A stretch of DNA of 64,000 nucleotides, taken from the IMG/VR virus record IMGVR_UViG_3300027418_000370. One strand, given 5' to 3'. A program made the position numbers and the translations under genes. Below, in pieces: positions 11,413 through 40,555 of this stretch; the stretch's first letter is position 1; the number at the start of each line of letters is the position of its first letter. The notes below the pieces were generated by a model. It was not told the DNA's origin. It did not search any database and worked only from the letters and a program-made list of their open reading frames with translations. The DNA comes from a virus.

Positions 11413-12434
11413 TGGGCAAATACGACGACTTACTAAATAAAGTACAGCCGTCGGCACCCCGCAAAGTTAACGATCACATTCTGGTTATAGATGCGCTGAA
11501 TACGTTCATTCGCAGCTTTACCATGATTAATATGATGAACCCTCAAGGGGCTCACGTAGGCGGCATGGTCGGATTTTTAAAGTCATTAGGTTTCTTAACC
11601 CGTACTTTTAATCCAACCAGAGTAGTGATCGTCTTTGACGGACCAGGGTCGTCGGCAGCAAGAAAGAATATCAATTCGGATTACAAAGCTAACCGAGATA
11701 TTACTAGAATCACCAACTGGGAGATCTTTGATAAGAAGGACGATGAGTACGCTTCTATGTCAGCACAGATTGAACGTCTGGTTGAATACCTTCAGATGCT
11801 ACCGGTAGATATGATCTCTATGCCTAAAGTAGAGGCTGATGATGTTATTGCATATATCGGTCAACAGTTTGGAGATAACAACAAAGTAACTATAGTATCA
11901 TCAGATAAGGACTTTCTTCAGATTGTCGATGAAAATGTAGAGGTATACTCTCCTATTAAGAAGAAAATATACGGACCTGCACAAGTAAAAGAAGAAGTAG
12001 GTGTTCTTGCAGAGAACTATTTAGTAATGAAGTCGCTTTTGGGAGATAATTCAGACAACCTCCCAGGTGTTAAGGGCCTCGGACCGAAAGGAATCTTCAA
12101 ACACTTCCCGGACTTGATAGACAAGCCTGGTACTGATTTGGAGTATGTTTTTGAGATCTGTGAAGCAGGTGTTGAGAAGACTAAGATCTTTCAGAAGATA
12201 CTTACAAACTACGACCGAGTGTGGCAGAACCATGATTTAATGAATTTAATGGAGCCAAGGTTGTCTGATACCCAAAAAGTTCTTATATTGGATTTAATGG
12301 ATAACTGCCCATCACAGTTAAATGTAATGGCGTTCCTCTTAATGCTCAAGCAAGATAACATCGAGCACGGCATTACAAAGAACACAGAAAGTTGGCTAGA
12401 AAATTTTAGATATTTACTTACAGTTAAAAAATAG
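11412..12434 (+). CDS. 5'-3' exonuclease / flap endonuclease (T4 RNase H-like)
   Basis: VIDALN, VFDG, YKANR, EADD, SSDKDFLQ, GDNSDNLPGVKGLG motifs. Confidence 0.9.
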   Translation: MGKYDDLLNKVQPSAPRKVNDHILVIDALNTFIRSFTMINMMNPQGAHVGGMVGFLKSLGFLTRTFNPTRVVIVFDGPGSSAARKNINSDYKANRDITRITNWEIFDKKDDEYASMSAQIERLVEYLQMLPVDMISMPKVEADDVIAYIGQQFGDNNKVTIVSSDKDFLQIVDENVEVYSPIKKKIYGPAQVKEEVGVLAENYLVMKSLLGDNSDNLPGVKGLGPKGIFKHFPDLIDKPGTDLEYVFEICEAGVEKTKIFQKILTNYDRVWQNHDLMNLMEPRLSDTQKVLILDLMDNCPSQLNVMAFLLMLKQDNIEHGITKNTESWLENFRYLLTVKK

Positions 12435-21987: not shown

Positions 21988-22812
21988 ATGGCAAAACACG
22001 TTGTTGTTAGTCTTTCAGGAGGGATGGACTCCTCTACGTTACTTCTAAAAGCTCTTAAAGAGTTTGATACAGTAACAGCAATGTCTTTTGATTACGGTCA
22101 AAAGCACAGAGTAGAGCTTGAAAGAGCTCAAGAGTTGGTAAAGTACTTGAGTGATAACGGTCACTCTGTTAATTACCGAGTAATCAAACTAGACGGCTTG
22201 GTTGACCTGCTCAACTCGGCTCTAGTAACAGGTGGTGCTGAAGTACCTGAAGGTCATTACGCAGAAGAGAATATGAAAGCTACTGTTGTACCGAACCGAA
22301 ACAAAATCTTCAGTTCAATTTCTCAAGCTGTAGCACTTTCTATTGCAAATGAAACTCAGGAAGAAACTTCCATTGCGTTGGGCATTCATGCTGGTGATCA
22401 TGCGATCTATCCGGACTGCCGACAGGAATTTCGGGATGCAGATGACGCTGCTTTCCGCACTGGTAACTGGGACGCTGAGCGCGTATCTTATTGGACTCCT
22501 TATCTTGAAGGCGATAAGTTTACTATTCTAGAAGACGGACTGGTATTATGTGAGAAGCTAGGAATAGACTTTGATGAAGTTTATAAGCGTACTAACACCT
22601 CTTATAAGCCAATCAAGTACTATCACCGTCCAGAGACTAATGCCTGGACTTGGTACTCAGACTACAAATCAGCTTCTTCAGTAGAGCGTATTGAAGCTTT
22701 TATTAAGCTAGGACGACCTGATCCTGTAGCGTACGCTGATGAGACCGGCCCAGTGAGCTGGGAGGTAGCACGTGAGCATGTTGAAAAAGTTTTAGCAGCA
22801 CACGCAAATTAA
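21988..22812 (+). CDS. queC: 7-cyano-7-deazaguanine synthase
   Basis: SLSGGMDS, FDYGQKH, VPNRN, YPDCRQEF. Confidence 0.95.
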   Translation: MAKHVVVSLSGGMDSSTLLLKALKEFDTVTAMSFDYGQKHRVELERAQELVKYLSDNGHSVNYRVIKLDGLVDLLNSALVTGGAEVPEGHYAEENMKATVVPNRNKIFSSISQAVALSIANETQEETSIALGIHAGDHAIYPDCRQEFRDADDAAFRTGNWDAERVSYWTPYLEGDKFTILEDGLVLCEKLGIDFDEVYKRTNTSYKPIKYYHRPETNAWTWYSDYKSASSVERIEAFIKLGRPDPVAYADETGPVSWEVAREHVEKVLAAHAN

Positions 22813-22813
22813 T

Positions 22814-22843
22814 TAGGGGGGAGCTTGTCTCCCTCCCTATTTA
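22814..22843 (+). terminator. Putative terminator hairpin after queC
   Basis: taggggggag-cttgt-ctccctcccta followed by ttt. Confidence 0.55.
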
Positions 22844-22856
22844 TTCTTATATTAAG

Positions 22857-22886
22857 AGTGTCGGAGCACCACTATAAAAACACCGG
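22857..22886 (+). ncRNA. Candidate preQ1 class I riboswitch aptamer (copy 1)
   Basis: P1 AGUG/CACU, loop UCGGAGCAC, tail AUAAAAACACCGG directly abutting ATG 22887; located just after a promoter. Confidence 0.6.
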
Positions 22887-23480
22887 ATGAAAAAGTTACT
22901 ACTATTATTACCTCTGCTCTGGGCTTGTGAAACGATTGAGCCCTATGTTCCTGAACCTTGTCAGGAATGTACTACTATTCATAGAGTAGATACTATTCAA
23001 CATCCTGGAACTTATTATCAAGACGGATACTGGCATTTACAATATTCAGGTATAAATTACTTCCAGGTTATCGGTCAGTTAGATTCCCTACATCCTCAAT
23101 ATGTTATAAATGGAGTACCGCTACTTCAAGTAGTATATGATAGCGATACCTGGTATGTATTTGATACCATTGCTATGCAAATACCTCTGTACTCTCCATT
23201 TACTTCCCAATATACTTCCCCAAGCTTTAATTACCCTATCTCAACAGGAGATACTACAATCTATATTACAAATCCTAACTACATTATAAATGCAGTAGGT
23301 TATACGTTTGGAAGTACAAACTTTGTGAATGCTATGCACACATACCAGCCCCGGTGTGAAGTACTGGTGTTTGAAGAGATGGTGGGAGATACGATTAATG
23401 TCTTCACAAGAACGCGTTATAACTACGATCTAGGTACTCAGATAATAGTAAACGATACAATTAAAGTTATAGTAGAATGA
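22887..23480 (+). CDS. Hypothetical lipoprotein
   Basis: MKKLLLLLPLLWA-C lipobox. Confidence 0.6.
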   Translation: MKKLLLLLPLLWACETIEPYVPEPCQECTTIHRVDTIQHPGTYYQDGYWHLQYSGINYFQVIGQLDSLHPQYVINGVPLLQVVYDSDTWYVFDTIAMQIPLYSPFTSQYTSPSFNYPISTGDTTIYITNPNYIINAVGYTFGSTNFVNAMHTYQPRCEVLVFEEMVGDTINVFTRTRYNYDLGTQIIVNDTIKVIVE

Positions 23481-23683
23481 AAAAACAGTTATTAGTAGAG
23501 CCTGTTCTTCCGAAAAGTAAGAACATTGAAAAGATGCCTGATCAGAAATGGCATCAAATTATCTCATTTATTAAATCCGGAGTCCGTATTCTTGGTTACG
23601 CACTGCTTATTGTTGATATCCCAACAGCAATGGTGGTACTGGTCTTGAGTGAGGCAGTCGGCATAATCGAAGAATTAGTATGA
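23477..23683 (+). CDS. Small membrane protein
   Basis: Hydrophobic C-terminal half. Confidence 0.55.
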   Translation: MKKQLLVEPVLPKSKNIEKMPDQKWHQIISFIKSGVRILGYALLIVDIPTAMVVLVLSEAVGIIEELV

Positions 23684-23940
23684 AGTATTTGTATTTCTCA
23701 GCACCTTGGTGCGGTCCTTGTAGAATGTTAGGTCCAACAATGGAAAAAGTAGCAGCAGAAGGAATTGCTGTAGAAAAAATTAACATCGATACGGAAGAGC
23801 TCCTAACGATGGAATACACAGTCCGCAGTGTACCTACTGTAGTACTGATTGATGATTCTGGAAAAGAATTTGCTCGTACAGTTGGCGCTAAGCCATTAAG
23901 TCACTATATTGAACAATATAATAATTTTACAAATGTATAA
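23680..23940 (+). CDS. Thioredoxin
   Basis: WCGPC active site, SVPT cis-Pro motif. Confidence 0.9.
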   Translation: MKYLYFSAPWCGPCRMLGPTMEKVAAEGIAVEKINIDTEELLTMEYTVRSVPTVVLIDDSGKEFARTVGAKPLSHYIEQYNNFTNV

Positions 23941-24391
23941 GTCAAGAAAGAAGTTTGATGGCTTTAGTACTTGCTTCCGTCAATGGAAAGCGAATACTAC
24001 ACACTGTCAGTACCTACACGGCTATGATGTAGAGTTTGAAGTAACGTTTGAAGGAGATCTCGATCACCGTAACTGGGTATGGGACTTCGGAGGTATGAAG
24101 CGAGCTAAGAACCTGATCGACGGTATGCAACCTAAAGAATGGATGGAGCATATGTTCGATCATACTGTAGTTGTAGCAGAAGACGATCCTGAACTAGATA
24201 ACTTCAGAGATATGGCCGACAGAGGCGTTATTCAGTTACGAGTAGTAGAGGCAGTAGGTGCAGAGAAATTTGCTGAATTTCTTTACCACAAGCTAAATGA
24301 CTTCGTACAGACAGAGACAGACGGCCGAGTTAAGGTCATTAAAGTTAAATTTATGGAGAACCACAAAAACTCAGCAATCTATGGCGCTTAA
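23933..24391 (+). CDS. queD: 6-carboxy-5,6,7,8-tetrahydropterin synthase
   Basis: CQYLHGY, WVWDFG, FDHT, AE motifs; ATG at 23933. Confidence 0.9.
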   Translation: MYKSRKKFDGFSTCFRQWKANTTHCQYLHGYDVEFEVTFEGDLDHRNWVWDFGGMKRAKNLIDGMQPKEWMEHMFDHTVVVAEDDPELDNFRDMADRGVIQLRVVEAVGAEKFAEFLYHKLNDFVQTETDGRVKVIKVKFMENHKNSAIYGA

Positions 24392-25157
24392 GAGAATTGA
24401 AGATTATAATAAGGTACTGCCGATTGTAGAGCTTTACCGATGTGTACAATCAGAGGGTAGTCGTTTTGGACGTCCTACTATCGCTGTACGTACTACAGGA
24501 TGTACTCACCGCTGCTACTTCGGTGAAGGAGGTTGGTGTGATAGCTGGTATACCTCTATCCATCCAGAGAAAGGTGGTTATTCATTTAACGATATTATTA
24601 AGATTTACGATGAGAATCCTCACGTAAAGGAGATGATGCTAACAGGAGGTAGCCCAACAATGCACCCAGCCTTAGTAAATGAGATTACTCACTTTGCTAA
24701 AGAAAGAGGTATTATTGTTACTATTGAGACTGAAGGTTCTCACTTCCTTGAGACGGACTATCCTCTTGATCTTATCTCTCTATCTCCTAAGTTCTCTAAT
24801 AGCGTACCCGTAGTAGGAGCTGTTACACCTCAAGGCGCTATTGCAGATGAGAAGATGATTAAGCAACATAACAAGTTCCGTATCAACAAAGATGCTATCC
24901 GTCAGACTTTGGACTATCATACTGATTACCACTTTAAGCCGGTATGGGACGGTAGCGCAGCGAATCTAGTAGAGATTGAAGCATTTAGGGTTGAGATGAA
25001 TATTCCTAAAGACAAGACTTTTGTTATGCCTGCAGGTGATACTCGTGAGACTTTAATTGAAATGTACCCAATCGTATTTGAGATGTGTGCCGAGCACGGT
25101 TACAATATGACCGGACGTGATCACATCATTGCCTACGATACTAAGAGAGAAGTATAA
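24381..25157 (+). CDS. queE: 7-carboxy-7-deazaguanine synthase (radical SAM)
   Basis: VQSEG..GRP, GCTHRC-x7-CDS, LTGGSP, IETEG, SLSPK. Confidence 0.92.
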   Translation: MALKRIEDYNKVLPIVELYRCVQSEGSRFGRPTIAVRTTGCTHRCYFGEGGWCDSWYTSIHPEKGGYSFNDIIKIYDENPHVKEMMLTGGSPTMHPALVNEITHFAKERGIIVTIETEGSHFLETDYPLDLISLSPKFSNSVPVVGAVTPQGAIADEKMIKQHNKFRINKDAIRQTLDYHTDYHFKPVWDGSAANLVEIEAFRVEMNIPKDKTFVMPAGDTRETLIEMYPIVFEMCAEHGYNMTGRDHIIAYDTKREV

Positions 25158-25339
25158 TGCCAAACGGATACTTAGGAGCTTTATGGTTGATGTGGAGTAA
25201 TAGCGCTATCGAACCAGCACACGTTATTAAAGCCCTAAGTATCTACGGCTATAAATTAGATGCATTAACCAAACAGGGCTTAGTAGCCTCAAATGAAAAT
25301 ACACGTTTTGAATATAAAGAGTATACTTCTTGGAGCTAG
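25157..25339 (+). CDS. Hypothetical protein
   Basis: Small ORF coupled to queE. Confidence 0.4.
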   Translation: MPNGYLGALWLMWSNSAIEPAHVIKALSIYGYKLDALTKQGLVASNENTRFEYKEYTSWS

Positions 25340-25655
25340 TCTGTTCTTTCTAGGACAAGTAATAACCTTCTACCAGCTTAACGGACAGTTTATCTGGAGC
25401 TGGTTTAAAAAGTACGAATGGGCTGTTGCTCTATTTGGTATACCTATTTCGTTCATTTTTATCTGGGCTACCAGAACAGCAGTCGCTGGCTTTGACGGTT
25501 TACTATGGCCTGCTCGTTTTATAGGATTCGGTACAGGAATGATAGTTTATGCCTTCTGCGTATGGTACTATATGGGAGAGCCGATATCCACTAAGACTGC
25601 TATTAGTCTCCTTCTAGCTCTAGTATTAATCTGTGTTCAAGTACTCTGGAAATGA
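25293..25655 (+). CDS. Small multi-pass membrane protein (SMR/DMT-like)
   Basis: About four TM helices; YYMGEPISTKTAIS resembles the DMT/SMR C-terminal motif. Confidence 0.55.
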   Translation: MKIHVLNIKSILLGASLFFLGQVITFYQLNGQFIWSWFKKYEWAVALFGIPISFIFIWATRTAVAGFDGLLWPARFIGFGTGMIVYAFCVWYYMGEPISTKTAISLLLALVLICVQVLWK

Positions 25656-25903
25656 GTTATATTATAGGTTCTAAGTGTATAGATGTTAAAGACAGTGGAT
25701 GTATGGATGTATGTCCTGTTGACTGTATATACGAGGACCTACAGCAAATGTTCATTAACCCAGATGAATGTATTGATTGCGGAGCTTGCATTCCAGCTTG
25801 CCCAGTAGAAGCTATTTGGGACAGTGAAGAATGGGCTATTAGGATGGGTGATCAAGCATCTGTACATGCTAACTATAAGCATTTCGGATTAGAATATAAA
25901 TGA
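25652..25903 (+). CDS. Ferredoxin (7Fe/dicluster type)
   Basis: CIDVKDSGCMDVCPVDC and CIDCGACIPACP. Confidence 0.9.
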   Translation: MSYIIGSKCIDVKDSGCMDVCPVDCIYEDLQQMFINPDECIDCGACIPACPVEAIWDSEEWAIRMGDQASVHANYKHFGLEYK

Positions 25904-26085
25904 GAAGAAAAGATATAATAACATTAAATGATGACTGGTATGAAGTTCAGAGAGTACTTAGAGAGGATCGTCAATGGGATGTTGAAATTCTTAAACAGTA
26001 CTGGTCTTGTACACATACCTTCCGTAAAGACGGTCTACTCTATTTTTGTAGAGAGATCCCAAAAATTGAATATCAACAAATATGA
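25900..26085 (+). CDS. Hypothetical protein
   Basis: ATGA-coupled small ORF. Confidence 0.5.
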   Translation: MRRKDIITLNDDWYEVQRVLREDRQWDVEILKQYWSCTHTFRKDGLLYFCREIPKIEYQQI

Positions 26086-26729
26086 AAGTAACCCTAAATC
26101 ATGTAACTCCGGACGCGGAGAATGCAATTGTAAAAATTGCTAGAGTATCCTCTAAACGTACCGACAAGGTAGAGAAGCCTGAAAGGCTACTACACTACCT
26201 TATCAAGCATAAGCATTGGTCTCCATTCGAGCACGGATATATGTCTGTAGAGATTGAGACTTCTAAAGCTATTGGTATTCAGTTAATTCGTCACCGCTCT
26301 TTTACCTACCAAGAGTTCTCACAACGTTACCAGGATGTAAGCTTAATTGACGGTATGTTTGAGAGTGTAGAGCTAAGAAAACAAGCTGAAGATAATAGAC
26401 AAAGCTCCACTGAAGTATTTAACCCAGACGTATTCTATGCCGGATACAGTACTGCAGCTTCAGCTCAGATCGGTAAACACTTTAGAGCTTCCCAAGATCT
26501 TTATAAGCGACTCCTTGATGAAGGTGTAGCAAGAGAAGTAGCTCGAATGGTATTGCCACTATCTACTAAAACTAAGATTCACATGACCGGTTCTATTCGT
26601 TCATGGATCCACTTCTTAGATCTCAGAGATGATGCTCATGCTCAGAAAGAGATTCAAGATGTAGCAAAAGAGATCAAGAAGATCTTTATCGAACAATTCC
26701 CAGTAATCTCAAAATCACTAAACTATTAA
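26082..26729 (+). CDS. thyX: Flavin-dependent thymidylate synthase
   Basis: HWSPFEH, QLIRHRSFTYQEFSQRY, HAQKEI. Confidence 0.95.
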   Translation: MKVTLNHVTPDAENAIVKIARVSSKRTDKVEKPERLLHYLIKHKHWSPFEHGYMSVEIETSKAIGIQLIRHRSFTYQEFSQRYQDVSLIDGMFESVELRKQAEDNRQSSTEVFNPDVFYAGYSTAASAQIGKHFRASQDLYKRLLDEGVAREVARMVLPLSTKTKIHMTGSIRSWIHFLDLRDDAHAQKEIQDVAKEIKKIFIEQFPVISKSLNY

Positions 26730-26731
26730 TT

Positions 26732-27355
26732 ATGAAAAAATGGCAGCACTTTACTTTCTTGTTATGGGTGGCATTCTCGGTTTACTCCTTTACAGCCTCT
26801 GGTCAGAAATCTTTAAGAGACAGCGTTGAATGGAACACTCCTTACTTTAGAATCTGGTATTCAGAACCTCTAGAGAATCCTTTATCAGTACGTTACGGTG
26901 TAGCTTGTCCTACAGGTACTGCTTCTAGATCAGGAATGGACTTCCACAAAGAAAAAGGAATTCATACTTCCGATAACGATGACTATGTAGCCAACGAATG
27001 GGACAAAGGTCATATGGCTCCTGCCGCAGACTTTAACTGTACCCGTGAAATGCTATTGGAGACATTTACATACGTTAACTCTTCCTTGCAGCACCAATCT
27101 CTCAATAGAGGTGTATGGAAGAAGCTAGAGACTCGAGAAAGAGAATTAGCATTAGGACACGAAGTACAAGTCTTTATCCGAGTAGAATTCTCAACTAATC
27201 CTGAAAGAGTACCTGGCGGTGCTGCTATCCCTTCCGGATACTATAAGGAACTAAAAGTTGCAAATCGCCGAGAATGTTACTATTTTAAGAACGAGAAACC
27301 TGTAACATCAGAGCTCTCAGATTATAAATGTCCTTGCAGAAATGCAATTAATTAG
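26732..27355 (+). CDS. Secreted DNA/RNA non-specific endonuclease (NucA/EndoG family)
   Basis: Signal peptide; DKGHMAPA, QHQSLNRGVWKKLE. Confidence 0.85.
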   Translation: MKKWQHFTFLLWVAFSVYSFTASGQKSLRDSVEWNTPYFRIWYSEPLENPLSVRYGVACPTGTASRSGMDFHKEKGIHTSDNDDYVANEWDKGHMAPAADFNCTREMLLETFTYVNSSLQHQSLNRGVWKKLETRERELALGHEVQVFIRVEFSTNPERVPGGAAIPSGYYKELKVANRRECYYFKNEKPVTSELSDYKCPCRNAIN

Positions 27356-27734
27356 TACGCATCCTATTAAGAAATCTGACCTCGGCTTTCATGCTAACCT
27401 CTTTGGAGGTAAGCTGTTAGCCTGGTTGGATGCTGCTGGAGCAGCTATGGCAATGGAGGTAGCTGATACTCCTAGAATGGTTACTATCAAGATAGACGAA
27501 TGTCTTTTTAAGAAACCAGCCAAAGAAGGTCAGTTGTTAAAAATTTATGGAAAGGTAGCAGAAGTTGGAAATACGTCTTTAACTCTCTATCTTGAAGCTA
27601 GAGCACATAACGTATACTCAGGAAGTCAGTCGGTAATACTCTCCACTAAGATTAAGTTTGTACGTATTGATGAAAATAATGAACCAATTCCAATCTCAGA
27701 TAGAATTAGATTAAAGTATGCAACAGTTAATTGA
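27342..27734 (+). CDS. Hotdog-fold acyl-CoA thioesterase
   Basis: NLFGGKLLAWLD..AA, FKKP, VGNTS, FVRID. Confidence 0.85.
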   Translation: MQLISTHPIKKSDLGFHANLFGGKLLAWLDAAGAAMAMEVADTPRMVTIKIDECLFKKPAKEGQLLKIYGKVAEVGNTSLTLYLEARAHNVYSGSQSVILSTKIKFVRIDENNEPIPISDRIRLKYATVN

Positions 27735-28224
27735 CGCAAAGGATATTGATATCCAAACTAAGATCATCGCTAAGAAGATCTCAGCAGAGCACAATGGAGA
27801 TAAAACTCCAATCGTTATGGTAGGGTTATTGAATGGAGCATTTATGTTCTATGCAGACCTAGTACGCAACATTACAGTAGACGTAGAATGTGATTTTATG
27901 AGAATAAGATCATACGTCAGTAAAAAGAAACAAGGTGATATTCAGATCACCAAAGACTTAGAGACGCCTGTTAAAGGAAAGCACGTCTATATCGTAGACG
28001 ACATTTACGATTCGGGTAATACAATGGATGCTGTGATTGAATACCTTCAGGTCAAACACCCAGCCTCGATTAATATTGTTACTCTACTGACTAGAGAAAC
28101 TTCTAGGATACCCCCAGTACCTTCCTATCATGCATTCACTATCAAGGATGAATGGGTAGTAGGCTTTGGAATGGATAACGATAAAGGTTATGCAAGAAAT
28201 TACAGAAGTGTGTTTGCACTCTGA
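27718..28224 (+). CDS. hpt: Hypoxanthine-guanine phosphoribosyltransferase-like protein
   Basis: GLLNGAFMFYADL, PRPP motif IVDDIYDSGNT, WVVGFGMD. Confidence 0.9.
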   Translation: MQQLIDAKDIDIQTKIIAKKISAEHNGDKTPIVMVGLLNGAFMFYADLVRNITVDVECDFMRIRSYVSKKKQGDIQITKDLETPVKGKHVYIVDDIYDSGNTMDAVIEYLQVKHPASINIVTLLTRETSRIPPVPSYHAFTIKDEWVVGFGMDNDKGYARNYRSVFAL

Positions 28225-28247
28225 AATAGTTTTCGTATATTAATAAG

Positions 28248-28277
28248 AGGTGTCGAAGCACCACCTAAAAAAACAAA
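28248..28277 (+). ncRNA. Candidate preQ1 class I riboswitch aptamer (copy 2) upstream of folE
   Basis: P1 AGGUG/CACCU, loop UCGAAGCAC, tail AAAAAAACAAA; lies between a promoter (28213-28241) and the folE ATG (28282). Confidence 0.7.
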
Positions 28278-28281
28278 TTAT

Positions 28282-28992
28282 ATGGCAGATAAAAAACGTT
28301 ATGATGTAGAACTCGCTCAAGCCGGGTTCGCTAATGGTGTCTCTTCTCAACTGGCTGAGAAGTTTAAAGTTCATTCTATGAACTCTATGCACTTAACAGA
28401 TCAAGAGAAGCATACTATTATTGAGAATGCTGCAAAGGCATTCGGAGAATTCCTAGATGCTCTAGGATGTGACTGGCGTGATGACCCTAACTCATCTGAT
28501 ACTCCTCGTCGAGTAGCTAAGGCTTATGTAAACGACTTATGGGCAGGACGATTCAATCCTATGCCTGAGATCACAGCCTTCCCTGCTGATGGTTATGATG
28601 GTATTGTATTTGAGGGTAATATTCCTTTGACCTCGATGTGTTCGCATCACCACCAGACTATTCAAGGTCGAGTTCATATTGCTTACATTCCAGGTCCTGG
28701 AGGTAAGGTAATCGGTCTATCTAAGCTCAATCGTATTGTAGAGCATTTCGGACGTAGAGGTGCTATTCAAGAGCAGCTTACTGTTGCTATTCATAATGCA
28801 GTTCATACTGTTTGTGAAGGTAATGTAGGTGTAGCAGTTATGGTAGAAGCTACTCACAATTGTGTATCATGCCGCGGTACTAAACACGCTGGTGCGTCAA
28901 TGAAGACTTCTAAGCTATCAGGTAGCTTTATGTACGAAGACTCAGCACGAGCAGAATTTTATGAATTTGTTAAAGGTTACGCATGCAAATGA
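28282..28992 (+). CDS. folE: GTP cyclohydrolase I
   Basis: DTPRRVAK, SMCSHH, IGLSKLNRIV, QEQLT, HNCVSCRG. Confidence 0.95.
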   Translation: MADKKRYDVELAQAGFANGVSSQLAEKFKVHSMNSMHLTDQEKHTIIENAAKAFGEFLDALGCDWRDDPNSSDTPRRVAKAYVNDLWAGRFNPMPEITAFPADGYDGIVFEGNIPLTSMCSHHHQTIQGRVHIAYIPGPGGKVIGLSKLNRIVEHFGRRGAIQEQLTVAIHNAVHTVCEGNVGVAVMVEATHNCVSCRGTKHAGASMKTSKLSGSFMYEDSARAEFYEFVKGYACK

Positions 28993-29495
28993 AACGAGCA
29001 AAAAGTGTCCCATTTATCGACGAAGTAGAGATCTTCAACGATACGTTCGGTAAGCCGAACAATTACACTCCTATTATTCCTAATGATAAGAAACTTACTA
29101 ACTTCGTAGTAGATTTTATTAAAGAAGAGACTGACGAACTAGCACACGCTATTGAAGAGAAAGATATTGTAGAAGTACTAGATGCTATCTGCGATCTACT
29201 TTACGTAGCTATTGGAAATGCTACCATGGTGTTTGGATTGAAGAATAAGATCGTACCAGCTTACCGAGAGGTACAGGCATCGAATATGTCTAAGAGCTGT
29301 GCGACTGTAGAAGAAGCAGAAGAGACTATTGCTCTCCGTTCTCAACAGCACGGCGAGTGTTACTTCCGTAAGGTGGGAAACCGTTATGTTGTTTATCGCA
29401 AAGCGGACGATAAGGTTATGAAATCTATTAACTACTTCGCTCCTAATCTTGAGCAGTTCTTTACTCCAGAAGAAATCGAAAACGCTAAGCAATGA
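28983..29495 (+). CDS. MazG-like/PRA-PH nucleoside triphosphate pyrophosphohydrolase
   Basis: IKEETDEL, EVLDAICDLLYV, VQASNMSK. Confidence 0.85.
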   Translation: MQMKRAKSVPFIDEVEIFNDTFGKPNNYTPIIPNDKKLTNFVVDFIKEETDELAHAIEEKDIVEVLDAICDLLYVAIGNATMVFGLKNKIVPAYREVQASNMSKSCATVEEAEETIALRSQQHGECYFRKVGNRYVVYRKADDKVMKSINYFAPNLEQFFTPEEIENAKQ

Positions 29496-29689
29496 GTCCA
29501 AAAGAACTGGTAGAACAAAATAGTATCTTCTTAGAAGACCTACAACGCTGGGTTGTACCTTTAGAAGTAGTAGAGGAAGCCTTGCAGATCAAGAGCGCTA
29601 AAGAGCTTGAAGATAATTTAGGTAAACTTCAAGATAGTATGTTAGAATTAAACAAGTTATTTAACGATTTAGGAAACGCCAATGGTTAA
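29492..29689 (+). CDS. Hypothetical protein
   Basis: Small coupled ORF. Confidence 0.5.
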   Translation: MSPKELVEQNSIFLEDLQRWVVPLEVVEEALQIKSAKELEDNLGKLQDSMLELNKLFNDLGNANG

Positions 29690-30509
29690 GATTGCACACG
29701 AGAGTCCTATTGCTAGCTTTGACACTATTCAGCAGTATACGGATTATGATTACGCTTTAGTACATCTCTTTGAAGAGAACGAAACTTATTTAGATAAGTT
29801 TGTAGAAGCACGAGATAAAGGACGAGAGATTATTCTCGATAACTCTATCTTTGAATTAGGAAAAGCTTTTGATTCAGAACGCTTTGCTTTCTGGATTGAT
29901 TATTTAAAGCCTACCTGGTACATCGTACCTGATGCATTAGAGAATGTAAAGCGTACTTGTGCTAATATGGCTGAGTGGAACTTTAAGTATGCAGATCATC
30001 TAGCAGCACCTAGTAAAAAGATTGGAGTACTACAGGGAAAGACTTACTCTGAGCTTATCAATTGCTATGACTACATGATTAATATAGCAAAGGTAGATAT
30101 GGTGGCTATCTCTTTCGATTACAGTTATTACGAACAGCTCGTACCACACCCTAACAAGTATGTTAGCTGGATGCTAGGCAGAGTTGTGCTCTTAGGTAAG
30201 ATGTTACGTGATGGAGTAATCAACCCAGATATCCCTCACCACCTACTAGGCTGTGGACTTCCTCAAGAGTTTGCTTTCTATAAAGACTACGATTGGATCT
30301 ACTCACTAGATACTTCTAACCCAGTAGTACACGGTTTGTTGGGAATCGAGTATAAAGATCAAGGGTTGTGGGATAAGGCATCAATCAAGTTATTTGAGAT
30401 GATTAATATGACTCCTACCTCTGAGCAGGTTACTTCAGCAGTTTATAATGTTCAACGCTTTAGATGGTTCGCACATGGTAGCAACTCGTCCGTGGATAGC
30501 ATTCTTTAG
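29682..30509 (+). CDS. dpdA: DpdA-like 7-deazaguanine transglycosylase (TGT fold, probably DpdA3-type)
   Basis: TGT-barrel motifs ILDNSIFE, IVPD, GVLQG, HHLLGCG, SLDTS; no Zn-binding CxCxxC of tRNA TGTs; sits among que genes. Confidence 0.75.
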   Translation: MVKIAHESPIASFDTIQQYTDYDYALVHLFEENETYLDKFVEARDKGREIILDNSIFELGKAFDSERFAFWIDYLKPTWYIVPDALENVKRTCANMAEWNFKYADHLAAPSKKIGVLQGKTYSELINCYDYMINIAKVDMVAISFDYSYYEQLVPHPNKYVSWMLGRVVLLGKMLRDGVINPDIPHHLLGCGLPQEFAFYKDYDWIYSLDTSNPVVHGLLGIEYKDQGLWDKASIKLFEMINMTPTSEQVTSAVYNVQRFRWFAHGSNSSVDSIL

Positions 30510-31035
30510 TCAGACTGGATCTGAGATTGTTCAGGTTAGTAAGCAGTTAGGTCGCTGGCCTGACCTTATTATTACTAATATCAGGCCTTCTCATTTACGT
30601 ACTATACATCCTGAGATTCCTACAGACCTATTAAAGTATACTCAGAATAGACCTGAGGAGCATGAGCTTGTATGGCTGATGAGTGCAATAAGTGATAACC
30701 CTGTTGTAACTTTACACGGATGGTTAAGAGTAATGCCTGCTTCTATCTGTAATCGCTATGAAATCTATAACGGACATCCAGGATTGATTACTAAATATCC
30801 AGACCTAAAAGGAAAAGATCCTCAATATAGAGCCTGGGAAGGTAACTATAAGACTGCTGGCTGTGTTATTCACAAAGTAACTGCCGGAGTAGATGAAGGA
30901 GAAGTTCTAGTGGAGCGAGAAAGTATACATAAGATGTTGCCTAAGAACGATATTTTTCGTATCTTACATGACACATCAGTAGAGATGTGGATAGAATTTT
31001 TACATAATAAACTATGGTTAGACGAATTGCATTAG
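30475..31035 (+). CDS. PurN-like formyltransferase (DpdN, putative dPreQ1 formyltransferase)
   Basis: FFSQTGS, LHGWLRVM, NGHPG, GCVIHKVTAGVDEG formyltransferase motifs; overlaps the dpdA-like gene. Confidence 0.8.
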   Translation: MVATRPWIAFFSQTGSEIVQVSKQLGRWPDLIITNIRPSHLRTIHPEIPTDLLKYTQNRPEEHELVWLMSAISDNPVVTLHGWLRVMPASICNRYEIYNGHPGLITKYPDLKGKDPQYRAWEGNYKTAGCVIHKVTAGVDEGEVLVERESIHKMLPKNDIFRILHDTSVEMWIEFLHNKLWLDELH

Positions 31036-31532
31036 TAGGAGCTAGTAGTACTGGTAAGACTACTGTGTATGAGTTATTGAAAGCTAAACTACCTAAGTAT
31101 GAGTTTATTAACGAAAGTACTCGTACGGTAGCTAAGTTTGGCTTTCCTATTAACGAAGCAGGTACTACTGAGACTCAGTTAGCTATTTCTTCTTTTCACT
31201 TAGAGGCTTTGCTTAAGCCTCATAGTTTGATTCTAGATCGTTGTTATCTAGACTTAGTTGTATACTCTAAGCATATGCCTGCTTTATCTTCTCAAGGCTT
31301 AGACTTTATTGAAGATACTTGGACTAGAGTGCAGGATGAGTATACGCACTATATTTATTTCCCTATTGAATTCGATGCTGTGGATGATGGTCAGCGCAGT
31401 GTAGATGAAGCTTGGAGAAAGATTATTGATGAAGAGTTTAAGTATCAACTCGATTTAACTGACCGTCATTATTTAACTGTTACTGGCTCACCATTGCAGC
31501 GAGTAGATCAAATTTTAAAATACATAAAGTAA
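31014..31532 (+). CDS. P-loop nucleoside/nucleotide kinase-like protein (AAA_28/NadR type)
   Basis: IALVGASSTGKTT, LILDRCYLD, DDGQR. Confidence 0.75.
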   Translation: MVRRIALVGASSTGKTTVYELLKAKLPKYEFINESTRTVAKFGFPINEAGTTETQLAISSFHLEALLKPHSLILDRCYLDLVVYSKHMPALSSQGLDFIEDTWTRVQDEYTHYIYFPIEFDAVDDGQRSVDEAWRKIIDEEFKYQLDLTDRHYLTVTGSPLQRVDQILKYIK

Positions 31533-32447
31533 ATGGAAGAAGTAAAGAACTACAATGCAGTCGTTGAGATTGCTGGTAAACACCTCGGTAAGGTAGGTGG
31601 AGAAGGTTACTCAGATCAGTACAATGCTGAGTTGCTAGTAGCAGTACCTCGTTATTTAAACCGAGAAGCTTACGGAATTGAGGAGAGTAATCTTCCATTC
31701 GTAGGAGTAGATGCTTGGAACGCTTATGAAGTTTCAGCTATTACTAAAAAAGGTCAGCCTGTAGCAGGTATGTTAAAGATTGTATGCCCAGCTAATACAG
31801 AGTTTCACGTTGAGTCAAAGTCTATCAAATTATACTTGAACTCTTTGAATATGACTCCGATGGGTCAGACAGCTAAGGAGTGTATCAAGGAGATTGAAAC
31901 AACAGTAGCTAAAGACCTAACTGACCTACTAGGAGGAAATGTAACCTGTACCTTCTTCGGCAATACATACACTCCAGAGTTTGAGTTTGATGGCTTTACA
32001 GACTTAGGTGCAACAGTAAACCTTGACAACATTGAGTTTACAGCCTTTAAGTCTGATGCAGGTCAGCTTGAGATTGGCGGCAATCTTCCAATGTCTGTTA
32101 CAACTAAAGTAAGTTCTAACTTGCTACGTAGTAACTGCCGAGTAACTAACCAGCCTGACTGGGGTGATATCTACATCCATATGCAAGGTCATAACTCAAT
32201 TAAGCTTGAGTCACTAGCCAAGTATATCGTTAGTCACCGTACAGTATCTCACTTCCATGAAGAGATCTGTGAGATGGTATTTACTCACCTTCAGCAAGCC
32301 TATCAACCTGAGAAGCTTATGGTAGCATGTTTATATACACGTCGTGGTGGATTGGATATTAATCCTATTCGAGCTACACATAAAGATATGATCCCAGGAT
32401 GGTTTACTGATTCGGGTAAACGAATGAGAAAAACTTTACGTCAATAA
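31533..32447 (+). CDS. queF: NADPH-dependent preQ0 reductase (bimodular type)
   Basis: VESKSIKLYLNS, RSNCRVTNQPDWG, FHEEIC, YTRRGGLDINP. Confidence 0.95.
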   Translation: MEEVKNYNAVVEIAGKHLGKVGGEGYSDQYNAELLVAVPRYLNREAYGIEESNLPFVGVDAWNAYEVSAITKKGQPVAGMLKIVCPANTEFHVESKSIKLYLNSLNMTPMGQTAKECIKEIETTVAKDLTDLLGGNVTCTFFGNTYTPEFEFDGFTDLGATVNLDNIEFTAFKSDAGQLEIGGNLPMSVTTKVSSNLLRSNCRVTNQPDWGDIYIHMQGHNSIKLESLAKYIVSHRTVSHFHEEICEMVFTHLQQAYQPEKLMVACLYTRRGGLDINPIRATHKDMIPGWFTDSGKRMRKTLRQ

Positions 32448-33030: not shown

Positions 33031-35373
33031 ATGTCGATAGAAAAAAAGTATTATACGGTTACAGATAAGGAAACTGTTAACCTACTCATCCAGCACATTA
33101 ACGAATCAAACGTTATTGCGTACGATACCGAGACCGACTCCCTTAACATGCGTAAGGGTAAAGTAGTCGGCTTCTCCGTCTCAGGTGATATTGGTATTGG
33201 TTTCTATATGCCAACTATGGCTTGGAATCACGCTACTGAGACTCTAGATGAACTTCAGATCGAAGGCATCGGTTGTCATACCTTAGCTAAGAAGATCTTA
33301 AGTATGCTAGTCGGTAAGAAGCTTGTGATGCACAACGCATCGTTTGACTGCCGATTTACTAAGAACTTCTACGGTGTTAACTTACTAGATAGTCTCTGGG
33401 TTGATACTGCTCTGCTAGTACATACCGTCCAAGAAGAAGGAGCAGGTATGGGAGTATTCGGTCTTAAGCCTCTAGCTATTTCTATTCAAGAGCACATCGG
33501 TCTAGATGTAGAGAAGGCTGCTAACGAAGAGCAGATCGAACTGAAAGAGTCTATCAAACGTAACGGAGGCTCAGTAACTAAGGAAAGCTTTGAGATCTAC
33601 AAAGCAGACATGGACGTACTATCAAAGTATGCCGCTGCCGATACTGACTTAACTCTCCGAGTATGTACTTACTTTATTCAGAAACTTAAAGAAGAGAACT
33701 TAGAGCAGTTCTTCTTTGAAGAGGAAGTTATGCCTCTGTACCGTGAAGTAACTATTCCTATGGAAGAGATGGGAGTAGATTTAGACTTAGAGCTACTAGA
33801 AGAGACTAAGAAAGAGATTATTGAAGATCTTCAGAAGAATAAAAAGATTGTACTTGACTCTATTCTAGCTCTACCAGCCGGTAAAGAATGGGTTGTAGAT
33901 ACTGCTCTAAAAGAGTTCCCACCTTCTCATAAAGGAACATGGGCACAATACTTAGCTATGCGTTACTCTTTACCTCTGCCTAAATCTGAGAAGACCGGTA
34001 AGTACTCTATTACTCAAAAGACTGTAGGAGAGCTAGAAGATTCTCCTGCTAAAGAGTACCTCTTAACTGGAAACTTAGATGTGCTGAATGAAATGGAGGT
34101 ACTTAAAATCTCTATGGCATTATGGAAAGAGAAGAATGATGGGGAGTATATCAACATTCAATCTAAGAAACACTTAGGTGAACTTGTATTTGACTATATG
34201 GGTATTAAACCTCTTGTATCAGGAGCTAATACTAAGTCCGGTCGTGATAAGTTTGACATGGATATGATTGAAGAGCTCTCTAAAGACTACGAATGGGCTG
34301 AGAATCTTCGTATCTATAACAAGCTACTTAAGATTAAGTCTACTTATATCGATCGCTTTGTAGATAATCACGAAGACGGACGTTACTACTTCTACTTTAA
34401 ACAGAACGGTACTGTATCAGGCCGTTATGGTTCAGATGCTCAGCAACTACCTAAGCCTAAAGAGGAAGGAGAAGATGCTCCTATCATCGTCAAGTATACT
34501 AATATCGTCCGTGCTTTCTTAACCTCAGGACCAGGACGTAAAATTATCGATGCTGACTACGAGTCATTGGAACCTCACTGCTTTGCTTCTGTATCAGGAG
34601 ACATTAACCTTCAGGAGATCTTTAACAACGGATGGGACTTCTACTCTACTGTTGCTATCAGAACTGAGAAGCTAGATGAGCAGCGAGATAAGTACCCTGA
34701 CGGAGTATCAGCTGATAAGAGAGCTCCTAACTACCTTAAGAAGTTAGACCCTGTTAAGCGTAACCAAGCTAAGGCTTACTCCCTCGGTATTGCATATGGT
34801 ATGGAAGCTTACGCTCTAGGAATGACACTAGGCATCTCTCAGAAAGAAGCCGAAGTACTTGTAGATGGTTACCTAAATGGATTTCCTCAACTTAAGCAGT
34901 GGCGTATTAACTCTCGTAAGCAGGTTAAAGAGCATGGCTTTATTAAGAATAAGGTAGGCCGTATCCGTCACCTACCTAAAGTTAAAAAGATGTACGATAC
35001 TTTCGGAGACCAGATCATGGACTGGAAGTTCCGGAAAGACCTTTCAGAACGTTATGGCAAGGATCAAGTACTACAATGGTACCGTGACTACCGAAACGGA
35101 CTGAATAACTGTTTGAACTACCAACTGCAGAGCCTTGCAGCGGCTGTCGTAAACCGAGCGGCAGTACAGATCAATCGCAAGCTGAAAGAGCTTGGGATCG
35201 ACGGCCGTGTTCAAGCACAGGTACATGACCAGTTGATCATTAACGTACCAGAAGACCAGGCAGAGTTTGTAGCTCCTATCGTAAAAGAGATTATGGAGAG
35301 TACTACCAAGCTTGAAGGAGTAACTCTAAAAGCACCTCCTGAGATTTCTTATAACTGGAGAGACGGCCACTAA
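33031..35373 (+). CDS. polA: Family A DNA polymerase with 3'-5' exonuclease
   Basis: Exo I YDTETD, Exo II HNASFD, Exo III YAAAD; motif A DADYESLE, motif B RNQAKAYSLGIAYG, motif C QVHDQ. Confidence 0.95.
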   Translation: MSIEKKYYTVTDKETVNLLIQHINESNVIAYDTETDSLNMRKGKVVGFSVSGDIGIGFYMPTMAWNHATETLDELQIEGIGCHTLAKKILSMLVGKKLVMHNASFDCRFTKNFYGVNLLDSLWVDTALLVHTVQEEGAGMGVFGLKPLAISIQEHIGLDVEKAANEEQIELKESIKRNGGSVTKESFEIYKADMDVLSKYAAADTDLTLRVCTYFIQKLKEENLEQFFFEEEVMPLYREVTIPMEEMGVDLDLELLEETKKEIIEDLQKNKKIVLDSILALPAGKEWVVDTALKEFPPSHKGTWAQYLAMRYSLPLPKSEKTGKYSITQKTVGELEDSPAKEYLLTGNLDVLNEMEVLKISMALWKEKNDGEYINIQSKKHLGELVFDYMGIKPLVSGANTKSGRDKFDMDMIEELSKDYEWAENLRIYNKLLKIKSTYIDRFVDNHEDGRYYFYFKQNGTVSGRYGSDAQQLPKPKEEGEDAPIIVKYTNIVRAFLTSGPGRKIIDADYESLEPHCFASVSGDINLQEIFNNGWDFYSTVAIRTEKLDEQRDKYPDGVSADKRAPNYLKKLDPVKRNQAKAYSLGIAYGMEAYALGMTLGISQKEAEVLVDGYLNGFPQLKQWRINSRKQVKEHGFIKNKVGRIRHLPKVKKMYDTFGDQIMDWKFRKDLSERYGKDQVLQWYRDYRNGLNNCLNYQLQSLAAAVVNRAAVQINRKLKELGIDGRVQAQVHDQLIINVPEDQAEFVAPIVKEIMESTTKLEGVTLKAPPEISYNWRDGH

Positions 35374-39338: not shown

Positions 39339-39424
39339 GCTACTGTGGTGAAATAGGTAGACACGAGGGACTTAAAATCCCTTGGCCAGTGATGGTCGTG
39401 CCGGTTCGATTCCGGCCAGTAGTA
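39339..39424 (+). tRNA. tRNA-Leu(TAA)
   Basis: Acceptor gctactg/cagtagt, anticodon arm aggga-cttaaaa-tccct, long variable arm, ggttcgattcc. Confidence 0.92.
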
Positions 39425-39442
39425 CACGGAAACCCATATACG

Positions 39443-39453
39443 GTTCTTTGACA
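39443..39453 (+). promoter_or_regulatory. boxA-like antitermination site
   Basis: GTTCTTTGACA in the first tRNA spacer. Confidence 0.5.
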
Positions 39454-39470
39454 TGTTGGATAGATAGAAT

Positions 39471-39552
39471 GCGGATGTGGTGTAATTGGTAGCCACGCCA
39501 GACTTAGGATCTGGTGCTTAATCGCGTGGGGGTTCGAGTCCCTTCATCCGCA
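39471..39552 (+). tRNA. tRNA-Leu(TAG)
   Basis: Acceptor gcggatg/catccgc, anticodon arm ccaga-cttagga-tctgg, ggttcgagtcc. Confidence 0.92.
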
Positions 39553-39669
39553 CATAATGAGAGGAGGAAAAGGTAAAATCCAAAGGTACGGTCGACGGGT
39601 CGTTTAAAACCTGAGGTACGGACTCTGATGCTGTAAGCGCGCTAAAGGAGTGAAGCCTCTCTATAATAT

Positions 39670-39743
39670 GGTCCGATAGCTCAGCTGGATAGAGCAACAG
39701 CCTTCTAAGCTGTCGGTCGAAGGTTCGAATCCTTCTCGGATCA
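39670..39743 (+). tRNA. tRNA-Arg(TCT)
   Basis: ggtccga/tcggatc, acagc-cttctaa-gctgt, ggttcgaatcc. Confidence 0.93.
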
Positions 39744-39835
39744 CTACGCAGTCAGATGCATCTGGTTTCTCTATTCCATTTAAAGATAGAGTGGAGCTAC
39801 AGTGGCAGGTTATGGTTGTCCTCTAACAACCAGCT

Positions 39836-39908
39836 CGGGATGTGGCGCAAGTGGTAGCGCACCTGGTTTGGGACCAGGGGGTTGGAGGTTCGAGTCCTGT
39901 CATCCCGA
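39836..39908 (+). tRNA. tRNA-Pro(TGG)
   Basis: cgggatg/catcccg, cctgg-tttggga-ccagg, ggttcgagtcc. Confidence 0.92.
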
Positions 39909-39930
39909 CTAATTATTAAATGTTTTAAAC

Positions 39931-40095
39931 ATGAAAACAATCATTAAGTACTTCTTTCCGGTAATGTACCTGCTTTACATTGTAGGTATTGGTTTAAACG
40001 TATCAGTTGGCGACTATTCAGATGCTGGCTGGATCTTCAGCGCACTACTCTGGATGTTTAACTACCATATGCTTTACCTAAAGATTACTAAATAA
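39931..40095 (+). CDS. Small membrane protein (54 aa) within the tRNA cluster
   Basis: MKTIIKYFFPVMYLLYIVGIG...WIFSALLWMF; two hydrophobic stretches; below the ORF-track cutoff. Confidence 0.5.
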   Translation: MKTIIKYFFPVMYLLYIVGIGLNVSVGDYSDAGWIFSALLWMFNYHMLYLKITK

Positions 40096-40224
40096 AGAAC
40101 CCAGACGTGTGCAAAGAGACTGAGTCTAGCCTCTAAATCCACTTCGGTGGTTGACTTTCGGGAAAAGATAGTGAGTGGGGAGTACGCCTACCGGACGGCG
40201 TCTCATTGATAACCTCCCCTATAA

Positions 40225-40297
40225 GCCTCCTTAGCTCAGTTGGTAGAGCCACTGATTTGTAATCAGTAGGTCGTTGGTTCGAGTCCGACAGGAGGCT
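40225..40297 (+). tRNA. tRNA-Thr(TGT)
   Basis: gcctcct/aggaggc, actga-tttgtaa-tcagt, ggttcgagtcc. Confidence 0.92.
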
Positions 40298-40392
40298 CAG
40301 AGAGTAGGACTAATAGTTCAGCATACCGCTGCAGCGGTAAAAGTAAGTTGCTGTTAATAGGACGCCGAATCCTAACGCCTATTCTTTTTTAC

Positions 40393-40475
40393 TGGAAGGT
40401 GGGTGAGTGGTTAAAACCGGCAGACTGTAAATCTGCTCCCTTACGGGTACGGCAGTTCGAATCTGTCCCTTCCAA
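40393..40475 (+). tRNA. tRNA-Tyr(GTA)
   Basis: tggaagg/ccttcca, gcaga-ctgtaaa-tctgc, variable arm, agttcgaatct. Confidence 0.9.
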
Positions 40476-40481
40476 CAAATT

Positions 40482-40555
40482 GCGCTTATAGCTCAGTTGG
40501 TTAGAGCATCCGACTCATAATCGGCAGGTCCTAGGTTCAAACCCTAGTAGGCGCA
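40482..40555 (+). tRNA. tRNA with CAT anticodon (probably Ile2/lysidine, otherwise Met)
   Basis: gcgctta/taggcgc, ccga-ctcataa-tcgg, ggttcaaa T-loop; overall resemblance to bacterial Ile2 tRNAs. Confidence 0.85.

Follow-up and report, generated by a model that had tools for sequence, protein, structure and literature searches.

The DNA of the Flavobacterium myophage immuto carries a formylated 7-deazaguanine. By liquid chromatography-tandem mass spectrometry (LC-MS/MS), its deoxyguanosine (dG) was fully replaced by 7-(formylamino)methyl-7-deazaguanine (fdPreQ1); the dG peak was absent, the unformylated form (dPreQ1) was undetected, and the DNA showed broad resistance to restriction (PMC10516641). 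The same study gave the names DpdA3 to the transglycosylase and DpdN to the formyltransferase of immuto (PMC10516641). Complete replacement of guanine, by 7-amido-7-deazaguanine (ADG), has been described for the CP220-type Campylobacter phages, and the bacterial Dpd system modifies well under 1% of guanines (PMC10516641). Here we analyzed a 64,000-nt stretch of viral DNA (hereafter the window, to which coordinates refer unless a locus is named) from the IMG/VR record IMGVR_UViG_3300027418_000370, a linear contig of 124,656 bp with a CheckV completeness of 76%; a search for a terminal repeat on the 124,656-bp contig found none. Judged from its sequence, a gene cluster at 21988-32447 of the window is very likely a DNA-hypermodification module for fdPreQ1, carried by an uncultured myophage that resembles immuto and is probably a phage of Bacteroidota.

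According to the proposed pathway, FolE, QueD, QueE, and QueC would convert GTP to 7-cyano-7-deazaguanine (preQ0), which QueF would reduce with NADPH to 7-aminomethyl-7-deazaguanine (preQ1). The DpdA3 transglycosylase would swap guanine for the deazaguanine base, and the PurN-like DpdN would add a formyl group to the 7-aminomethyl nitrogen, presumably from 10-formyl-tetrahydrofolate. Most or all guanine of the virion DNA would then be fdPreQ1, and restriction enzymes with G in their recognition sites would be blocked. That the product here is the same as in immuto is an inference, as are the formyl donor, whether insertion precedes formylation, and whether guanine is exchanged in DNA, which is the published view, or in a nucleotide. 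The gene content and order, the folds, the catalytic motifs, and the close homology to the sole phage with a measured product were established here.

The cluster and its likeness to immuto

Nearly all open reading frames (ORFs) of the window lie on the + strand. The features of the cluster and its surroundings are as follows, with amino acid identities to immuto where a homologue was aligned.

21988-22812, +: QueC-like preQ0 synthase (PF06508, E 2.6e-38, 132 bits; 74% identity to immuto QueC)
22855-22886, +: preQ1-I-like hairpin with an A-rich tail, abutting the ATG that opens the lipoprotein-like/thioredoxin/queD/queE unit
first gene of that unit, +: lipoprotein-like ORF
23680-23940, +: thioredoxin, directly upstream of queD (PF00085, E 4.1e-15)
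ORF 23909-24391, likely start ATG 23933, +: QueD-like 6-carboxytetrahydropterin synthase (PTPS, E 6e-16; 59%)
ORF 24297-25157, likely start 24384, +: QueE, radical-SAM 7-carboxy-7-deazaguanine synthase (PF04055; 67%)
25652-25903, +: small 4Fe-4S ferredoxin, just downstream of queE (PF00037, E 1.2e-10)
26082-27355: ThyX, followed by a DNA/RNA non-specific endonuclease (Endonuclease_NS)
within 21988-32447: 4HBT thioesterase (72% identity to the immuto thioesterase)
27718-28224, +: hypoxanthine-guanine phosphoribosyltransferase (HGPRT; TIGR01203, 153.6 bits against a cut-off of 150)
28247-28281, +: preQ1-I-like hairpin with an A-rich tail, abutting the folE start codon
28282-28992, +: FolE, GTP cyclohydrolase I (PF01227, E 1.6e-43; 76% identity to immuto FolE)
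28983-29495, +: MazG/PRA-PH-like nucleoside triphosphate pyrophosphohydrolase (PF01503, E 6.1e-12; phrog_671, E 2.6e-29; 58%)
29492-29689, +: small conserved ORF of 65 aa with no Pfam match, between the MazG-like gene and dpdA
29682-30509, +: DpdA3-type guanine transglycosylase, 275 aa (no Pfam match; phrog_19058, E 7.5e-46; 65% identity to immuto DpdA3)
30448-31035, likely start 30475, +: DpdN-type formyltransferase (PF00551, E 1.5e-10, 41.6 bits against a cut-off of 26.1; 59%)
31014-31532, +: AAA_28 P-loop protein (PF13521, E 6.3e-15; 67% identity to the immuto 'thymidylate kinase')
31533-32447, +: QueF, two-domain NADPH-dependent preQ0 reductase (QueF_N, E 3e-31; QueF, E 3.8e-19; 62%)
33031-35373, +: family A DNA polymerase (PolA) with a 3'-5' exonuclease domain (PF00476, E 7.6e-57; 74% identity to immuto PolA)

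The cluster is collinear with that of immuto, and the aligned proteins are 59-76% identical (QueC, 74%), apart from the pyrophosphohydrolase at 58%. The fdPreQ1 prediction is well founded, on homology only, because of this collinearity, the transglycosylase fold, and a formyltransferase that keeps the catalytic triad of PurN and scores below the PurN threshold. The likely start of QueE was placed at 24384 because its homologues align from M30, and that of the formyltransferase at 30475 because most of its homologues begin at M10. Copies of the 65-aa ORF are 61-74% identical in the close loci L002-L004 and L024 of our neighbourhood set, and a similarly sized ORF occupies this position in immuto.

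An earlier note on this DNA had read the interval as a complete pathway to fdPreQ1. All seven genes that it named (folE, queD, queE, queC, queF, and the DpdA-like and PurN-like genes) were recovered by Pfam and PHROG searches on the + strand at or near the positions it gave. The overlap that it reported between dpdA and the formyltransferase gene is real, in different frames, and measures 62 nt if the latter gene begins at ATG 30448 and 35 nt if it begins at ATG 30475. The association of DpdA3, DpdN, and QueF with fdPreQ1 in a Flavobacterium myophage, which it had named, agrees with the published account, where the activity of DpdN is likewise a prediction (PMC10516641), and its assignment of fdPreQ1 to this genome gains support from the close homology to immuto. 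Other genes are interspersed in the interval, so this is no pure pathway operon.

Transglycosylase, preQ1 enzymes, and leaders

The transglycosylase was recognized by its fold. At the sequence level, the DpdA-like protein gave no Pfam or NCBIfam match and no PDB match by phmmer, the Pfam family TGT (tRNA-guanine transglycosylase) had no match in the genome at a threshold as loose as E 10, and the fold search alone succeeded. The AlphaFold2 (AF2) model, built on 22 homologues, had a pLDDT (predicted local distance difference test) of 91.4 and a pTM (predicted template modelling score) of 0.89. The top 50 matches of this model in a Foldseek search against PDB were tRNA-guanine transglycosylases without exception (E down to 1.7e-8, prob 1.00, query TM-score [TMq] 0.58-0.67). 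On this model, the 275-aa protein has the TGT fold, a TIM barrel. The residues invariant in the 22 DpdA3 sequences are LD53-NSI-F57, P-D84, Q118-G119, HHLLG186-190, and D210-TSNP. The active site of TGT and DpdA enzymes uses three aspartates, for general acid/base catalysis, for base recognition, and as the nucleophile. Essential residues of bacterial DpdA are Asp95/Phe99, Asp130, and Leu236/Asp256 (PMC10164549), and D53/F57, D84, and L189/D210 are spaced like them, the residue mapping being derived from this spacing. In a tblastn search of 50,697 GenBank phage records, the only matches to DpdA were in immuto (65%) and the CP220-type Campylobacter phages (37%), apart from two further weak ones; no DpdA of the 9g, CAjan, or Rosebush type was matched in these records. 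By these matches, the transglycosylase of the window thus groups with the named DpdA3 members and not with DpdA1, DpdA2, or DpdA4. Isoelectric point (pI) and net charge were considered as a test of DNA binding by DpdA3 (median pI 5.7) and dropped, the phage's own PolA being equally acidic.

Catalytic residues are retained in FolE and QueF. FolE has CSHH and the cysteine of THNC. QueF has ESKSIKLY at residue 94, Cys202 in SNCRVTNQPDW, and HEE at 241-243, so that the catalytic cysteine and the QueF motif, E(S/L)K(S/A)hK(L/Y)(Y/F/W), are kept; both of its Pfam domains pass their cut-offs, and TIGR03138 matches with E 1.8e-73 at 247.5 bits, under its cut-off of 293.45. The cysteines of QueE (C69, C73, and C81) have a CX3CX7C spacing that is conserved in the lineage, with a five-residue insert between the second and third cysteines relative to Bacillus subtilis QueE (5tgs, CX3CX2C). 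The ferredoxin downstream of queE could donate electrons to QueE as its reductant.

QueC and QueD depart from the textbook enzymes. The PP-loop motif SGGMDS of QueC is present at residue 10. The four C-terminal cysteines of canonical QueC form a zinc site; the C-terminus of the window protein has no CxxCxxC and reads instead NTSYKP...SDYKSASSVERIEAF, which is specific to the lineage and kept in all 15 sequences examined, immuto's not among them, and the alignments of PDB QueC structures to it end at about residue 159. In QueD, the motif reads C-QYL-HGY: CxxxHGY replaces CxxxHGH in 24 of the 24 lineage sequences, immuto included. In alignments of the window QueD with PDB 2oba and 7v0f, a Phe occupies the position expected for the first zinc histidine, and the PTPS domain scores above its Pfam cut-off. 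Because they are conserved through the lineage, both departures are taken as lineage traits and not as defects of this copy. Immuto makes fdPreQ1 although its QueD has HGY too.

One architecture is common to the folE leader and that of the queD/queE unit: a hairpin of 4-5 bp closed by the loop UCG-N-AG-NN-C is followed by the tail UAAAAACA, which extends into the start codon. This element occurs 58 times, in 30 distinct sequences, in related loci (for example, L001 9902-9944), nearly always a few bases before an ATG. Before folE it is kept in the lineage, immuto included, and it precedes the queD/queE unit in many related loci. Among 26 distinct aligned leaders, found with a pattern that demanded at least four of five stem pairs, which bears on the pairing statistics, the four inner P1 pairs were 100% paired, two of them with changes on both sides (GC/AU/UA; UA/AU), and the covariation score was 0.54 against 0.14 in shuffles. 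The loop TCG-N-AG-NN-C and the tail TAAAAACA were nearly invariant in the 26 copies. The loop resembles, as we take it, that of the Thermoanaerobacter aptamer. Scans for a preQ1 riboswitch with all Rfam families gave no match at the gathering score or at E<=10; with RF00522 alone, the best match in the genome fell exactly on the folE leader, at 9.8 bits, below the gathering score of 39. The architecture is that of the translation-acting class I preQ1 riboswitches in their general description (PMC3905878). We regard the leaders as conserved structured elements, putatively preQ1-I-like, that may sense the free base. Their conservation suggests that the phage meters its own deazaguanine synthesis in this way.

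Conserved core, kinase-fold protein, and route into DNA

The formyltransferase search retrieved 68 DpdN loci in IMG/VR (39-93% identity), with the order DpdA3-DpdN-AAA_28-QueF in every locus long enough to show it. A search with DpdA3 retrieved 4189 proteins from a metagenome protein collection and at least 536 IMG/VR stretches. The 80 best loci were taken for comparison of DpdA3 neighbourhoods; among the 56 with at least 3 kb downstream, 54 had DpdN, AAA_28, and QueF, and DpdN was missing from two. The AAA_28 gene escaped tblastn in four of the long-enough loci (L056, L058-L060); Pfam found it in L056 and L059. In distant groups (about 40% identity), the four genes lie beside baseplate genes with no preQ0 genes nearby; therefore, the four-gene core moves as a unit. 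On the evidence of gene order, the conserved core is DpdA3, DpdN, the AAA_28 kinase-fold protein, and QueF. The earlier note had called the system rare. This is true of cultured phages, among whose 50,697 records only immuto isolates carry it, and untrue of viral metagenomes, where it is common. The fdPreQ1 module is widespread in environmental phages and rare among isolates only.

Other genes accompany this core less regularly. Most immuto-like loci have the MazG-like gene immediately upstream of DpdA3, unlike the groups of 40-55% identity; a search for a solved relative by sequence found none, so its nucleotide specificity cannot be guessed. HGPRT, which matches solved Hpt structures (E 6.6e-31), is confined to the close clade of the window and a few others. 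It could salvage the guanine released by the exchange as GMP, and thereby feed GTP, from which the pathway starts. In locus L059, a distant version of the module, a gene with an IMPDH/GMP-reductase domain (10572-11525; PF00478, E 2.4e-56) lies between DpdN and the kinase.

The AAA_28 gene, a member of the conserved core, was missing from the earlier reading of this DNA and is not mentioned in PMC10516641; it is relevant to how the base enters DNA. The protein shows a Walker A loop, and its D-R-C motif is invariant. The best folds for its model (pLDDT 90.8) are those of thymidylate kinases, deoxynucleoside kinases, and the NadR domain with ribosylnicotinamide kinase activity, for which TMq reaches 0.79. 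As modelled, it has a nucleoside/nucleotide-kinase fold and not the fold of a DNA-dependent ATPase. A role as a DpdB-like ATPase partner of the transglycosylase is unlikely, given these best folds.

A homologue of the kinase (about 33% identity, E 1e-16) directly follows DpdA3 in Campylobacter phages CP220, CPt10, CP21, F379, and others. In CP220 (L070, 4862-7355), a gene for an HD-domain and P-loop protein (gp055), DpdA3 (gp056), and the kinase (gp057) stand in a row among tail sheath and tail tube genes. In the two immuto-like contigs that lack DpdN, the kinase carries a C-terminal GNAT-like domain (L112 6123-7079, the same as L147 5001-5954, and L148 5001-5951). This domain matched PF13673 with E 0.0023, under the cut-off, and Atlas feature matches to GNAT clusters reached 0.92 for the fusion; its length is shared by more than 60 clusters of metagenome proteins, many with precomputed PF13673 and PF13521. 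The fusion suggests a tie between the kinase and the chemistry of the aminomethyl group, and the DpdN-less variant, by its domain content, is a candidate maker of N-acetyl-preQ1, which would be a DNA base not described so far and the acetylated counterpart of fdPreQ1. The kinase association, the kinase::GNAT variant, and the leaders concern the whole family, immuto included, and not this contig particularly.

The published view is that DpdA exchanges the base after replication (PMC10516641). A pre-replicative route would give the same product: the deazaguanine would be placed on a free deoxynucleoside or nucleotide, either by DpdA3 or by some other enzyme that does not work on the polymer. It would then be phosphorylated by the AAA_28 kinase, the MazG-like enzyme would remove dGTP, PolA would incorporate the modified deoxynucleoside triphosphate (dNTP), and HGPRT would recycle guanine to GMP and GTP. 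In either case, PolA is the replicase that has to copy, or to incorporate, the modified base. We consider the pre-replicative route unlikely, though by no means negligible. The established complete base replacements, hydroxymethylcytosine in T4 and aminoadenine in S-2L, are made at the dNTP level. A gene with the fold of a nucleoside/nucleotide kinase, unlike that of a DNA-dependent ATPase, occurs in nearly every DpdN/DpdA3 locus that is long enough; it follows DpdA3 directly even among the tail genes of CP220-type phages, and it is fused to the GNAT-like domain in L112 and L148, where DpdN is missing. The module also holds the MazG-like hydrolase, HGPRT, and, in L059, the IMPDH/GMP-reductase-domain gene, and the ADG nucleoside has been reported in CP220-infected cells (cited in PMC10516641). 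Against this route, besides the published view, stands the fact that TGT-fold enzymes, bacterial DpdA included, are known to act on polynucleotides only. The Cellulophaga phage phiST replaces all of its G via DpdA3, and our search found no kinase homologue in it; the genes flanking its DpdA3 are unshared (PMC10516641). Furthermore, neither MazG nor HGPRT occurs in every version of the module, and large lytic phages often carry deoxynucleoside monophosphate kinases for general reasons. In our literature searches, the 2023 paper (PMC10516641) was the only one to turn up on DpdA3 or on pre-replicative entry of a deazaguanine.

We are doubtful, to a similar degree, of a joint reading in which a nucleotide-level route with incorporation by the polymerase is combined with N-acetyl-preQ1 made by the DpdN-less sister with the kinase::GNAT fusion. 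If it were true, incorporation by the polymerase would account for a replacement of 100%. Nobody has yet reconstituted DpdA3 (PMC10516641), and the kinase beside it in at least three unrelated genomic settings offers a concrete reason why reconstitution failed, as well as a possible alternative route.

Returning to the fdPreQ1 module as we read it, a different objection concerns its last step: the formyltransferase might be an auxiliary PurN that acts on glycinamide ribonucleotide (GAR), leaving DNA with plain dPreQ1 or partial formylation. The relation to PurN is evident. N108, H110, and D149 of DpdN are invariant across 22 homologues and align with the Asn-His-Asp triad of PurN, the folate motif HPGLI is retained, and every one of its best matches in PDB and NCBIfam is a GAR transformylase. 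The N-terminal S-Q-T-G-S loop (S-x-x-G-S) aligns with the PurN loop that holds the GAR phosphate, and PurN auxiliary genes exist in cyanophages (PHROG 9240 annotation). Nevertheless, the protein scores 45.8 bits against the PurN equivalog TIGR00639, whose cut-off is 150.1. Its gene sits between those of DpdA3 and QueF in all 68 loci and travels with both into unrelated genomic contexts, full-length homologues among the GenBank phages are limited to the immuto isolates, and immuto has fdPreQ1 with dPreQ1 undetected (PMC10516641). An auxiliary PurN is therefore very unlikely. The likeness of the loop hints, at the level of sequence, that the substrate of DpdN bears a phosphate, as a nucleotide or DNA would.

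That the cluster serves to raise queuosine in host or phage tRNAs, and does not modify DNA, is most improbable: seven tRNA genes are clustered in the window (39339-40555, +), and preQ1-like leaders are typical of bacterial queuosine operons, but the 275-aa minimal barrel is without the conserved cysteine cluster of the TGT zinc subdomain and unmatched by Pfam TGT, the closest characterized relatives of the transglycosylase are in phages with fully substituted DNA, and a formyltransferase has no role in queuosine synthesis.

Several points weigh against the assignment of the cluster to fdPreQ1. The formylation activity of DpdN is only predicted in the literature, and DpdA3 was not functional in Escherichia coli in the hands of the authors (PMC10516641). 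All of the Que proteins score under their NCBIfam equivalog cut-offs, and QueC without the zinc cysteines and QueD with HGY could both behave unlike the textbook enzymes. The phage is a metagenomic contig without an isolate, about 76% complete, and its product is assigned from homology.

Since the module has already been described, the finding as stated would not surprise a specialist. Taken at face value, it extends by one genome the record of an anti-restriction DNA hypermodification already described, to which it adds little but the environmental spread. The true route of insertion matters for making nuclease-resistant DNA with these enzymes. It also matters for host defences aimed at 7-deazaguanine DNA, which recently described glycosylases target (bioRxiv 10.1101/2025.10.29.685425).

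Comparison with known systems

The chemistry of immuto was measured, whereas the phage of the window is known from an incomplete 124.7-kb metagenome contig alone. The two share the order QueD, QueE, FolE, nucleoside triphosphate pyrophosphohydrolase, small ORF, DpdA3, DpdN, 'thymidylate kinase', QueF, and PolA, with QueC upstream, as well as the HGY variant of QueD and the preQ1-I-like leader before folE. They differ in that dpdA and dpdN overlap in the window and are parted by a small ORF in immuto, and in that immuto has an unrelated phosphoribosyltransferase of 131 aa where the window has a true HGPRT. Immuto has ThyA, whereas the window has ThyX and the Endonuclease_NS nuclease. This nuclease could degrade unmodified host DNA and spare fully substituted phage DNA.

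The dADG system of Campylobacter phages CP220, CPt10, and CP21 has in common with the window DpdA3 (37%) followed by the AAA_28 kinase homologue (about 33%). It has neither DpdN nor QueF, and its pair of genes stands among tail genes, preceded by the HD-domain and P-loop protein.

PurN and DpdN share the Formyl_trans_N fold, the Asn-His-Asp triad, the folate motif HP(S/G)L(L/I), and an N-terminal G-S loop. DpdN is shorter (about 175-195 aa), scores far under the PurN threshold, and is tied to DpdA3 and QueF and not to purine genes.

The DpdA/DpdB/DpdC system of Salmonella Montevideo resembles the window in its TGT-fold enzyme. That enzyme has three active-site aspartates, to which D53, D84, and D210 of the window protein may correspond, exchanges guanine for a 7-deazaguanine, as predicted here, and needs a partner that uses nucleoside triphosphates (PMC10164549). 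The bacterial Dpd system inserts preQ0 and then makes ADG on the DNA. Salmonella DpdB is a ParB-like, DNA-stimulated ATPase, whereas the partner in the phage has the predicted fold of a small-molecule kinase.

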